The position numbers were made by a program, and so were the translations under genes. DNA of 33,580 nucleotides from Candidatus Woesearchaeota archaeon (lineage in GTDB: Archaea; Nanobdellota; Nanobdellia; Pacearchaeales; GW2011-AR1). Where the stretch lies: the NCBI GenBank assembly GCA_964524525.1, contig CAZGCP010000001.1, positions 1-33,580 of the forward strand. The letters are read 5' to 3'. Each line of letters begins with the position of its first letter. The first letter of the stretch is position 1. The notes beneath the pieces are model-generated. The model was not told where the DNA came from, did no database searches, and was given only the letters and a program-made list of their open reading frames with translations. Shown in pieces: positions 12,054 to 27,889 of this stretch.

Positions 12054-12434
12054 TTAGAAAGATAATTTCTATAAGAATAGTTTTGTAATGGACTTATTTT
12101 GAAAATATAATTTCTGAAAGGTTTGTTTTTGTAGTGTATCTTTTTTTTGAGAAGATTTCTCTAGGTGGAAATTGATTTTATAAAGTATCTTTTTTGAAAA
12201 GATTTCTCTAGGCAGAGGTTGGTTTTGTAGTGTATCTTTTTTGAAAAGATACATGGGGATGCCCGGATTTGACAAAAAATTCTTTTGTAGGAATGAATTT
12301 TTAGTTCGTCCGTCTTTCCAATGTGATATTCGGAAATCCGAACGAAACCGCAAGCACTTCAAATCATTTTTTATAGAAAAGATTTCTCTAGGCAGAGGTT
12401 GGTTTTGTAGTGTATCTTTTTTGAAAAGATACAT
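12054..12434. repeat. Degenerating array of ~45-49-nt units in the tRNA-Pro trailer. The best units carry a perfect 9-bp hairpin.
   Basis: Unit anchors 'gtatc' at 12136, 12185, 12232 and 12412, with weaker units from 12054 and 12091. Consensus is gtatcttttttgaaaagatttctctaggcagaggttggttttgtagt. Hairpin gtatctttt-ttg-aaaagatac at 12232-12252 and 12412-12432. Confidence 0.8.
12196..12272 (-). repeat. Distal copy of a 77-nt direct repeat. Includes an 18-nt copy of the tRNA-Pro 3' end (12255-12272).
   Basis: 12196-12272 is identical to 12376-12452 (offset 180 nt). On the tRNA strand it reads TCAAATCCGGGCATCCCC followed by 59 nt of trailer. Confidence 0.9.
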
Positions 12435-12452
12435 GGGGATGCCCGGATTTGA
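12376..12452 (-). repeat. Proximal copy of the 77-nt direct repeat (tRNA-Pro T-loop/3' acceptor plus trailer)
   Basis: Identical to 12196-12272. The 12435-12452 part belongs to the intact tRNA-Pro. Confidence 0.9.
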
Positions 12453-12507
12453 ACCGGGGTCATGAAGTCCCAAACCTCATAGGCTAACCAGGCTACCCCA
12501 CATCCCC
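12435..12507 (-). tRNA. tRNA-Pro (anticodon UGG), no intron, CCA not encoded
   Basis: Minus strand: GGGGATG TG GGGT AGCCTGGTTA GCCT A TGAGG TTTGGGA CTTCA TGAC CCCGG TTCAAAT CCGGG CATCCCC. Perfect 7-bp acceptor, 5-bp anticodon and T stems, G37, discriminator A at 12434. Confidence 0.9.
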
Positions 12508-19019: not shown

Positions 19020-20453
19020 ATGAATTTTCAAGCATATGACTTAATTTTATTAACAATATTTGTAATTCTTGTGTCTTTCTTTTTATATAAAAACAAAAAA
19101 AACTTGAAAAGAGAAGGTTTGCTTTTTATTTATAGGACAAAATGGGGAATGAAATTAATTGATTCTATTGGTGGCAAATATAAAAAGACTTTAAAATTCT
19201 TAAGTTATATTTCAATAACAATAGGTTACTTATTAATGGGTTTTATGCTTTATTTATTTGGAAAAATTGTTTATATCTATATTGCTCTCCCATCATATGT
19301 TCAGGCTATTAAAATTCCTCCAATAACTCCGATATTCCCTTATATGGATAAAGTAATTCCAGGATTTCCTCCTTTTTATTTTATTTATTTTATTTTAATA
19401 TTAGCAATAATTGCAATTTTTCATGAATTTGCTCATGGGATTTTTATGAGGAGATATGGAATAAAAATAAAATCTACTGGTTTTGGGTTCTTTCCTTTTT
19501 TCCTTCCAATATTTTTAGCTGCTTTTGTTGAGCAAGATGAAGGAAGTATGGAAAATAAATCTCCATTTAAACAAATGGCTGTTTTAGCTGCAGGGACATT
19601 TGCAAATTTATTAACTGCTATTGTAAGTTTTGGTATTCTTCTTTTAATTCTTTCTACAATGTTCAATCCTGCAGGAGTAAATGTTATTCCAGACAATAGT
19701 ATTTTAGTAGCAATCCCTTTAGCAAATATTACAGGAATAAATAATATCACTCTTGATAACCCCACACATGAAATTCTCCTTGAAAATATAGGAAATAAAA
19801 CAGGAATATTAAAAACACAAGAGAAAGAATATCTAATAACAAAAAAAATTTTAGAAAATAAAAATATGACCTCAGAAAATTCAATAAAGGCATATCTTTC
19901 CCCTCCAGTATCAAAAATAGGAACAGATAAATCAGAAAAAAATGCAAATAGGGAAGAGTTTATCATCAAATATATTGGAAACCAAAAAATAACAAGTGTT
20001 CAAAAAATTTCAGAAATTATTTCAGATTATTCTCCAAAAGAAAAAGTAATCATAAAAACAAATAAAGGAGATTATGAAATAGAATTTCAAGAAAGCCCTT
20101 ATGAGGAAGATAAAGCATGGTTGGGAGTTTTTGTTTTACAAAGACCTTTAATTGGGGGGCATAAAGCCATAATGCCGGGGATAGGAAAACCTGGGATTTA
20201 TTATGAAGCAAAATCAGAATTAGGAATAATTCTTGAAAATTTCTTTGAATGGTTAGTTTTAATTAGTTTTGGAGTTGCATTAATTAATATGCTTCCTATG
20301 GGAATTTTTGATGGAGGAAGATTTTTCTATTTGACAATTTATAGCTTAACAAAATCAGAAAAAAAAGCTAAGAATTGGTTTAAATTTTCAACTAATTTCT
20401 TATTGTTTTTAGTATTACTAATAATGATTTTTTGGGGTTTGAGTTTTTTATAA
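19020..20453 (+). CDS. Site-2 protease family (M50) membrane metalloprotease with a PDZ-like insert
   Basis: HEFAHGIF (HExxH) in a TM helix. Second motif is NMLPMGIFDGGRF near the C-terminus. Multiple TM segments. ATG at 19020 preferred over GTG at 19011. Confidence 0.8.
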   Translation: MNFQAYDLILLTIFVILVSFFLYKNKKNLKREGLLFIYRTKWGMKLIDSIGGKYKKTLKFLSYISITIGYLLMGFMLYLFGKIVYIYIALPSYVQAIKIPPITPIFPYMDKVIPGFPPFYFIYFILILAIIAIFHEFAHGIFMRRYGIKIKSTGFGFFPFFLPIFLAAFVEQDEGSMENKSPFKQMAVLAAGTFANLLTAIVSFGILLLILSTMFNPAGVNVIPDNSILVAIPLANITGINNITLDNPTHEILLENIGNKTGILKTQEKEYLITKKILENKNMTSENSIKAYLSPPVSKIGTDKSEKNANREEFIIKYIGNQKITSVQKISEIISDYSPKEKVIIKTNKGDYEIEFQESPYEEDKAWLGVFVLQRPLIGGHKAIMPGIGKPGIYYEAKSELGIILENFFEWLVLISFGVALINMLPMGIFDGGRFFYLTIYSLTKSEKKAKNWFKFSTNFLLFLVLLIMIFWGLSFL

Positions 20454-27612: not shown

Positions 27613-27673
27613 CAATAAAAAAACAAAATTAAATTATATAAATGTTGTCAAAATTTCCTTTATTAATTATCAA

Positions 27674-27706
27674 TTTTTTAAAGAAAACGCCCCCGCCCCG
27701 AATCGA
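27674..27706 (-). repeat. Distal copy of a 33-nt direct repeat. Includes a 19-nt copy of the tRNA-Ser 3' end (27688-27706).
   Basis: 27681-27706 is identical to 27802-27827 (offset 121 nt), and the flanking T-run also matches with one mismatch. On the tRNA strand it reads TCGATTCGGGGCGGGGGCG TTTTCTTTAAAAAA. Confidence 0.9.
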
Positions 27707-27794
27707 GCCTCACTCATTTCATTCGTTCAACTTGTTTCGTATTTCTCTGTGCTTGAAAAGGAAATTCAAAACAAACCTTGTTCGATTTCCCAAA

Positions 27795-27827
27795 TTTTTT
27801 TAAGAAAACGCCCCCGCCCCGAATCGA
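27795..27827 (-). repeat. Proximal copy of the 33-nt direct repeat (tRNA-Ser T-loop/3' acceptor plus trailer)
   Basis: See 27674-27706. The 27809-27827 part belongs to the intact tRNA-Ser. Confidence 0.9.
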
Positions 27828-27889
27828 ACGGGGATGCCCCGGAGGGCCTCGGTCTCAAGCCGAGTGCAATACCATTATGCGACGGAGGC
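27809..27889 (-). tRNA. tRNA-Ser (anticodon UGA), class II with a long variable arm, CCA not encoded
   Basis: Minus strand: GCCTCCG TC GCA TAATGGTAT TGC A CTCGG CTTGAGA CCGAG GCCCTCCGGGGCAT CCCCG TTCGATT CGGGG CGGGGGC G. Acceptor stem has one G-U pair. Discriminator is G. Confidence 0.85.

Follow-up and report, generated by a model that had tools for sequence, protein, structure and literature searches.

How does a tRNA gene come to be followed by a second, perfect copy of its own 3' end? The question is raised by a tRNA-Pro gene in a 33,580-nucleotide (nt) stretch of DNA from a Candidatus Woesearchaeota archaeon (contig CAZGCP010000001.1, positions 1 to 33,580), referred to here as the window. 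We compared this locus with the rest of its metagenome-assembled genome (MAG; GCA_964524525.1, designated G000) and with the MAGs of two congeners, designated G001 and G002, which are its nearest relatives, G002 being the closer. The MAG of the window comprises 617 kb in 122 contigs, has a G+C content of 28%, and is approximately 81% complete; completeness across the genus set ranges from 81 to 88%. The host is a DPANN archaeon of the Pacearchaeota/Woesearchaeota kind. We favor the reading, with a probability of roughly 70%, that the two tRNA-Pro tails are target-derived direct repeats produced by insertion of a 103-nt miniature element that is gene-less, hairpin-forming, and non-autonomous.

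The tRNA-Pro repeat and its probable insert

An intact tRNA-Pro(tgg) gene is located at 12434-12507 on the minus strand (ARAGORN; Rfam RF00005, 59 bits). The sequence at 12376-12452 recurs at 12196-12272, over exactly 77 nt, and the identity ends at both borders. An exact repeat of this length cannot have originated by chance. On the tRNA strand it opens with TCAAATCCGGGCATCCCCA, which corresponds to tRNA-Pro nt 55-73 and starts inside the T-loop, and it continues with 58 nt of trailer. The initial annotation had rightly described the repeat as the tRNA 3' end plus trailer, but had counted 18 and 59 nt instead of 19 and 58, since the end of tRNA-Pro was placed one base apart. The proximal direct repeat (DR1; 12376-12452, minus strand) comprises nt 55-73 of the gene itself (12434-12452) and a native trailer made of two terminator-like hairpin/T-run modules. 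The distal direct repeat (DR2; 12196-12272, minus strand) comprises an orphan copy of nt 55-73 (12254-12272) and the identical 58-nt trailer. As had been claimed, this orphan end has no partner for either the T stem or the acceptor stem.

The 103 nt between the repeats (12273-12375, minus strand) contain no open reading frame (ORF) and form the inserted element. It was delimited by a family alignment and is matched by a covariance model (CM) of the family core, CM R1, at 67.5 bits (E = 1e-13); its predicted RNA fold has a z-score of -2.8. On the minus strand, the element runs from a filler (tataaaaa) through an inverted copy of the T-loop and a core hairpin to an A/T tail hairpin that ends in T6-G. 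The inverted copy, here called IR', is GATTTGAA at 12358-12365 (minus strand), the exact reverse complement of T-loop nt 54-61 of tRNA-Pro (TTCAAATC). It sits in a conserved left module, ATGATTTGAAG (12357-12367), which is also present at the orthologous tRNA-Pro locus of G002; the G001 version is altered to match that species' own TTCGAAT loop. The core hairpin (12295-12354, minus strand) has a 13-bp stem, a conserved G-A/G-A internal loop, and an apical loop of approximately 11 nt. The tail, designated type A, is an A/T hairpin of the form CTAAAAATTC...GAATTTTTTG that ends in a T6 run (12273-12304, minus strand; alignment and fold). This run is terminator-like and stands immediately 5' of the distal repeat. 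Compensatory variants of the type A stem occur in the alignment (AAAAATTC/GAATTTTT, AAAAATTT/AAATTTTT, AAAAATTTC/GAAATTTTT). In the centroid fold, the first 6 nt of DR2 pair with IR'.

Decaying extra copies of a terminator-hairpin trailer module of approximately 47 nt (repeat families D2-D5) lie 3' of DR2, at 12054-12195 on the minus strand; these are context, outside the insert. The tRNA-Pro trailer as a whole (12054-12434, minus strand) is a decaying tandem array of such units, in which a hairpin with a T-run (GTATCTTTTCAAAAAAGATAC) is followed by ACTACAAAACC. Each of the three species has this module behind many of its tRNAs, and it looks like the standard tRNA terminator of the genus.

A second locus of the same architecture had been reported at the tRNA-Ser(tga) gene of the window, and the alignment agrees. 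The intact gene (27809-27889, minus strand) is called by ARAGORN only; in a scan of the whole window, the Rfam tRNA model was silent there at its gathering threshold. Its DR1 (27793-27827, minus strand; tRNA nt 55-73 and 16 nt of trailer) and its DR2 (27672-27706, minus strand), an orphan tRNA-Ser 3' end plus trailer 121 nt downstream, match at 34 of 35 positions, and the last 19 nt are exact. The element between them (27707-27792, minus strand) belongs to the Ser subfamily (CM R1 44.7 bits, E = 5e-8). It consists of an IR' (GGGAAATCGAAC, 27780-27791), a core hairpin (27722-27782), and a type B tail (GTTGAACGAATGAAATGAGTGAGGC), all on the minus strand. The motif AATCGAA in this IR' is the exact complement of the TTCGATT loop of tRNA-Ser, and an orthologous unit is present in G002. 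Elsewhere in the window, a weak CM match (27 bits, E = 0.006) inside the ORF of an M50 peptidase (19056-19109, minus strand) is probably due to chance. Proteins encoded in the window include prefoldin, FtsZ, ribosomal protein L11, and an AMP-phosphorylase-like protein.

A hairpin family at tRNA genes of one genus

The initial annotation took the second locus as a sign that the arrangement was no single accident. A scan of tRNA loci in the genome and its relatives bears this out, as the pattern was found at other tRNAs and in relatives. When each tRNA was searched against the whole genome, six of the 23 ARAGORN tRNAs of G000 had an exact copy of their last 19-20 nt located 80-160 nt downstream: Pro, Ser(tga), Gln(ctg), Gln(ttg), Arg(cct), and His. 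A like pattern was found behind two intron-containing tRNAs, one of which is followed by two tandem units. Many tRNAs of G000 bear introns (contigs C11, C25, C30, C39, C53, C57, and C64), and ARAGORN without its intron mode misses or mislabels these genes, for example as 'tRNA-Stop(tta)' or 'Phe(aaa)'.

Comparison of the spacers with each other, suggested at the outset, revealed a common conserved core at all six loci. The core reads GGTTTCGTCTGGATTTCC-loop-GGAAAGACGGGCGAAC and is followed by either a short A/T hairpin ending in a T-run or one of three other tails. CM R1 identifies 23-29 copies in G000, 15 in G001, and 46 in G002, and the Pro spacer has relatives on 15 or more further contigs. 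Spacer length is 80-161 nt, and no spacer contains an ORF; units measure 80-180 nt at each of approximately 25 loci. The hairpin is strongly conserved as a structure. Across 69 aligned copies, 96.9% of the stem cells are paired and compensatory changes are seen at nine of the 13 base pairs; none of 500 shuffles scored as high, and slid registers were 41-63% paired. This alignment was fitted to the CM, and an independent MAFFT/RNAalifold result agrees.

The element family is confined to one genus: 38 further genomes from its taxonomic family or order contain no CM R1 match. A search for the core across GTDB genomes returned G002 as the sole true match. In IMG/VR, a 16-mer of the core gave chance matches only, and 0 of 80 of those loci fit the CM. 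A 27-base gapped pattern had no match in the metagenomes of the Joint Genome Institute (JGI). Rfam, searched at gathering and E-value thresholds, returned only the tRNA. Visual inspection of the core revealed no fitting C/D-box, H/ACA, k-turn, or hammerhead motif; the core has no 3-nt bulge beside the G-A pairs. The searchable literature yielded no description of this architecture.

The copies are strongly associated with tRNA genes. Of 22 copies in G000, 12 have a same-strand tRNA no more than 260 nt upstream of them, where 0.7% would be expected (P = 5e-21), and the tRNA-linked copies are always in the orientation of the tRNA. Members of the family occur behind at least 20 different tRNAs, each with a copy of its own 3' end. 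The three genomes together contain 27 tRNA loci with a downstream 3'-end repeat, and at 23 of these an exact copy of at least 14 nt is present. Of the 27 loci, 23 have a DR2 that starts at nt 54, 55, or 56. At its other end the repeat varies: at tRNA loci it is mostly 17-23 nt long, several are 26-55 nt, and that of tRNA-Pro is 77 nt, so that flanking repeats across all loci span 17-77 nt.

Copies away from tRNA 3' ends are likewise flanked by 17-35 nt of duplicated local sequence. At one locus of G002 (L037; G002:C5:11900-15400), three near-identical copies lie antisense at different junctions of a ribosomal-protein operon, each with a different local duplication of 17-34 nt that spans a start codon. 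The genes concerned begin like L29 and L14, and the upstream gene end and the downstream gene start are each preserved in one copy of the duplication. At other non-tRNA sites the local repeats measure 24-46 nt. Where a copy precedes tRNA-Val or tRNA-Glu, the duplicated sequence is the first 13-16 nt of the tRNA, up to the D-loop. For tRNA-Val(tac) (G000 C27 4600-4850; G002 L038 1660-1820), the leader and tRNA nt 1-13 are duplicated; a leader segment complements the 5' acceptor strand of the tRNA and covaries with it from G000 (ACGAGT) to G002 (ACGGGT). No ready-made attachment site could match all these targets, and the duplication must therefore arise at insertion. Microhomology between the element end and its target was considered as a sole cause and rejected: it is present at some gene-start sites (TTTCATTT) and absent from T-loop junctions.

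Comparison of orthologous loci reveals turnover. The tRNA-Gly(tcc), tRNA-Gly(gcc), and tRNA-Leu(aag) sites hold an element in G002 and none in G000. Each of the three species has an element at tRNA-Pro, with an IR' that fits its own T-loop, but core and tail types differ, as does the position relative to the terminator module, and the G001 locus has no distal copy. Behind one and the same IR', the Pro, Met, and Ser loci show either stacked units or cores whose type varies with the species. At tRNA-Ser of G002, a second unit of younger appearance is inserted precisely where IR' meets the old core. Its 55-nt duplication starts at nt 54 and extends through IR', and the oldest of the distal copies is degenerate. 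The distal copies at Asp and Met have been lost in G000 and retained in G002. This loss at orthologous loci indicates that the distal copy is dispensable.

These observations bear on local tandem duplication, which had been put forward as one explanation of the tRNA-Pro repeat. A process free of mobile elements, in which the DNA around a native terminator hairpin slipped during replication or was duplicated in tandem, would fit the perfect secondary amplification of whole units on contig C39 and at locus L038, and also the decaying array of the tRNA-Pro trailer. However, only 77 nt of the 180-nt period are duplicated; the other 103 nt are related to sequences dispersed over many contigs, sites in sister species are empty, and the boundary is fixed at nt 54-56 in more than 20 different tRNAs. 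Purely local duplication is thus very unlikely to be the primary cause.

A functional distal copy had also been proposed, for instance as an alternative 3' exon. The proximal 3' end and the element would then be a T-loop intron, in a host where introns in tRNAs are common, and splicing to an exactly duplicated exon would give the same tRNA. Against this, no bulge-helix-bulge (BHB) motif scored above control registers when 23 loci were examined in all registers; the Pro locus reaches (2,2,3), compared with (4,3,3) for a full motif, and the single full score obtained within the window maps to the trailer and depends on G-T pairs. The T6 run that precedes the distal copy in type A units argues against read-through. 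Furthermore, the distal copy decays or vanishes at the Asp, Met, and Ser orthologues with the tRNA intact, and the element also occupies non-tRNA sites. An alternative exon is scarcely credible on these grounds, and a functional distal copy in general finds no support in these data.

The family also leaves its mark on the assemblies. Runs of approximately 100 Ns fall inside repeats of the element or tRNA end in G000 (C57, 1350-1449) and G002 (L034, 816-914). Contigs likewise end within such repeats in G000 (C11) and G002 (C2, C5, C13, C18, C33, and C35). Because N runs and contig ends fall inside the repeats, the element family is a cause of assembly breaks in these MAGs.

Proposed insertion at the T-loop and the inverted copy

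IR' is tied to the tRNA that the element adjoins. This segment of 8-11 nt lies between the tRNA and the core and is the reverse complement of nt 53/54 to 62/63 of its own tRNA; it usually starts 3-9 nt past the end of the proximal repeat. An exact reverse complement of the tRNA's own 7-nt T-loop is present between tRNA and core at 18 of 31 loci. Permuted pairings of tRNA and IR' gave a mean of 4.5 and a maximum of 11 over 2000 trials. The match is specific to the resident loop: where the loop differs from TTCGAAT, the tRNA's own variant is found at 14 of 21 loci and the generic variant at one of 21. For example, TTCAAAT is mirrored by ATTTGAA (Pro, Ile, Met, Leu), TTCAATT by AATTGAA (Asp), and TTCGATT by AATCGAA (Ser). 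Among element-free tRNAs, an inverted copy of the own T-loop occurs in two of 21.

In the predicted fold of the element and distal copy, IR' and the first bases of DR2 form the closing stem of a three-way structure whose other arms are the core and tail hairpins. The geometry implies that both sides of the core-plus-tail segment join a DNA end that starts at nt 54, one of them inverted and only approximately 10 nt long.

Such a structure could also be that of a non-coding RNA, or of a cis-acting RNA element co-transcribed with the tRNA that assists processing, termination, or T-loop pairing, with the duplications as by-products of copying. Compensatory substitutions maintain the hairpin. IR' complements the resident T-loop, and orthologous loci of the three species keep it even if the distal copy is missing; in addition, the orientation is always that of the tRNA and the type A tail ends in a terminator-like T-run. 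The distribution argues against this: one genus only (0 of 38 other genomes), copy numbers that range from 15 to 46 between congeners, many tRNAs that have no element, and orthologous sites that vary in occupancy and core type. Some copies are antisense at the starts of protein genes, and the family has no Rfam match and no C/D, H/ACA, or k-turn signature. Covariation, moreover, would be expected just as much if the structure were recognised in the form of DNA, as with repetitive extragenic palindromic (REP) sequences and the ends of IS200/IS605 elements. A functional RNA is consequently an unlikely explanation.

Insertion of a miniature element would proceed as follows. The element would enter the tRNA gene at the T-loop (nt 54/55), and the stretch from the T-loop to the end of the transcription unit would be duplicated, leaving a complete tRNA with its terminator upstream and an orphan 3' fragment downstream. 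Insertion would take place at the DNA level, by an enzyme that acts in trans and is not encoded in the element. One break would be fixed 5' of the T-loop motif and the second would lie at a variable distance, which would result in long direct repeats of variable length. IR' may either have been templated from the broken T-loop end during insertion or serve to rebuild a double-stranded T-loop site within a folded single strand, as in the phage CTX-phi and integron attC sites. In secondary insertions such as that at the Ser locus of G002, where IR' puts the motif on the opposite strand as well, each of the two breaks would be made 5' of it, one per strand.

Two sub-models can be considered for the insertion step, neither of which is complete. 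In the first, transposition would create long and variable target duplications; this would account for the non-tRNA copies and not for IR'. In the second, a folded single strand, in which a stem of IR' and direct repeat imitates the T-loop site, would be recombined in the manner of CTX-phi attP(+) or attC. It would yield the order DR1-linker-IR'-core-tail-DR2 and the stacking of units, but fails for the copies at gene junctions. A third option, which is our own inference only, is that a nick primes strand displacement, after which the template switches to the displaced strand and synthesis runs off at the 5' end of that strand, at nt 54. This would give both features.

Candidate enzymes were sought in the three genomes. 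The only recombinases found in all three are Xer-like (tyrosine) recombinases, of which each genome encodes two. Contig C108 of G000 (L314) carries an IS1634-family transposase gene that is interrupted by an IS200-like Y1 gene. The C-terminal fragment of the former (NF033559, 119 bits) was found in G000 only, among MAGs that are 81-88% complete. Other DDE transposases, an IS1182 in G001 and an ISNCY on contig C117 of G000 (L313), have no ends in common with the element. C117 is a 1.7-kb contig with a G+C content clearly above 28% and is probably mis-binned. The Y2/IS91 family was not found in the genus in a search that had no positive control. The element repeats include trailer sequence and lack CCA, which indicates that they were not copied from mature tRNA.

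Several points weigh against insertion of a miniature element. No linked mobilising enzyme was identified in the genus. Neither Cas1 (PF01867), which was detected in control genomes, nor reverse transcriptase (PF00078) was found in the three genomes. The IS200-like Y1 transposase is a single gene in G000 only, flanked by different hairpins (CCGCAGCAAGCTGCGG), and the IS1634 fragment on C108 has no termini in common with the element. The Xer-like genes are not located beside elements or tRNAs, and two or more of them per genome is common across the taxonomic family. In addition, the ends of the element are not inverted repeats; the sole inverted pair is that of IR' with the target copy, which is target-specific. 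A plain staggered cut does not explain the inverted T-loop copy. Nor does it explain the Met locus of G002, where an 18-nt repeat is not contiguous with the insertion point. Mobility itself is inferred from sequence comparison of three MAGs, and the strong conservation of the hairpin would also fit a functional RNA.

Related arrangements exist beyond the genus. Among 39 tRNAs from six other genomes, downstream copies of the 3' end were found only in G018, which belongs to a different genus of the same family. Its loci L311, L299, L305, and L287 contain arrays of tRNA 3' fragments and IR'-like segments, with spacers unrelated to this family. One array has four different tRNA-Thr 3' fragments in a row.

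The first hypothesis of the initial annotation was that the repeats are attL/attR-like scars of an element integrated at the tRNA 3' end, now either a remnant or a miniature non-autonomous element. In a developed form, tyrosine-integrase elements would have integrated at T-loop attachment (att) sites and lost their interior, with the core as a retained att-proximal end. The T-loop and D-loop sublocations of tRNA attB sites are classical classes for tyrosine-recombinase elements; a repeat from the T-loop to the 3' end corresponds to the former, and the repeats of Val and Glu from the 5' end to the D-loop correspond to the latter (10.1101/2020.11.02.365908). The tRNA-Thr array of G018 is as predicted by serial integration of foreign attP sites, and two Xer-like recombinases are present in all three genomes. 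Yet no integrase or ORF lies in any segment bounded by direct repeats, and the units are 80-180 nt long at approximately 25 loci. One core stands behind at least 20 tRNAs, each with its own exact 3' end, and also at protein-gene junctions, which is beyond any attP-bearing element. The family has no relative in IMG/VR, and no imitation of the T-stem half-site stands immediately 5' of the distal copy. Decayed integrative elements are accordingly improbable. What survives of the first hypothesis is the miniature non-autonomous element, in that the spacer is a complete member of a dispersed structured family; the remnant of a larger integrated element does not, given that there is no integrase and that at least 20 tRNAs and further non-tRNA sites each have their own duplication.

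A more specific version of the miniature-element reading can be offered tentatively, and we hold it to be rather doubtful. The copies may represent undescribed, protein-less 'hairpin cassettes' of approximately 100 nt with inverted and direct copies of the T-loop end on one strand, whose closing stem either restores, in a folded single strand, a double-stranded T-loop site for a host Xer-like recombinase or is written by nick-primed displacement synthesis that switches template to the displaced T-loop end. If so, either route would let a cassette enter essential RNA genes and leave them unbroken. Such a mechanism could be general in ultra-small prokaryotes, as G018 has a like architecture with unrelated spacers.

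Comparison with known systems

While tRNA genes are classic landing sites for integrases, the elements that use them bring their own enzyme, and the one described here is gene-less and approximately 100 nt long. The family occupies roughly half of the tRNA genes in a symbiont genome of 0.6-0.7 Mb. Its target-derived inverted copy hints at how the site is recognised or the insert written. If it can be worked out, the mechanism would add a new route by which minimal mobile DNA can safely target essential RNA genes. It might likewise account for orphan tRNA fragments and broken contigs, both frequent in MAGs of DPANN and Candidate Phyla Radiation (CPR) organisms. For annotation, distal fragments of this kind should be treated neither as pseudogenes of separate tRNAs nor as prophage borders, and the repeats should be expected to fragment assemblies.

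The family shares several features with tRNA integration by tyrosine recombinases, including repeats from the T-loop to or past the 3' end, an intact gene, stacking of units, and a variant at the 5' end and D-loop. It differs in that the insert is 80-180 nt long and has no genes, the repeat is 17-77 nt long, and the unit contains an inverted T-loop copy. Unlike an integrative element, one lineage occupies at least 20 tRNAs and protein-gene junctions, with no single cognate target carried in an attP site.

There are also resemblances to MITEs, the miniature transposable elements bearing inverted repeats. Like these, the copies are small, non-coding, multi-copy, structured, lineage-specific, and intergenic, with target duplications and occupancy that is polymorphic among close relatives. 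Unlike MITEs, they have no terminal inverted repeats of their own, their duplications are long and variable, and no parent transposon was found. Their extreme preference for one position in tRNA genes and their fixed orientation are further differences. The only described precedent for long and variable target duplications is IS1634/IS1549, where direct repeats of 8-514 bp are formed by a mechanism that is not known (PMC2266710). That family is diverse in archaea and is represented by the transposase fragment on C108 of G000. However, its elements are 1.5-2 kb long, have terminal inverted repeats, and lack tRNA specificity.

Elements of the IS200/IS605 family and REP sequences mobilised by REP-associated tyrosine transposases (RAYTs) insert without target duplication, in contrast to the long duplications seen here, and the sole Y1 gene is associated with other hairpins. 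Casposons use a Cas1 integrase and create target duplications of 14-15 bp at tRNA 3' ends. The present family is similar in that the target duplication covers the tRNA 3' end and units stack in tandem. It is dissimilar in that the three genomes have no Cas1, the length of the duplication is not fixed, and terminal inverted repeats are lacking.

The inverted copy finds its closest counterpart in single-stranded substrates. In the attP(+) forked hairpin of CTX-phi, an integrative mobile element exploiting Xer (IMEX), and in integron attC sites, inverted and direct copies on one strand fold into a duplex that imitates the target. A strand of this type integrating at nt 53/54 would give the order DR1-linker-IR'-core-tail-DR2 and allow stacking at the regenerated site. 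The present element differs from these in that the duplex covers only nt 54-63 and its single-stranded form is putative, and such a model would require it to carry the tRNA 3' end beforehand. Taken together, the family relates both to tRNA-targeted insertion and to MITE-like elements, and the mechanism by which it combines them is possibly new.

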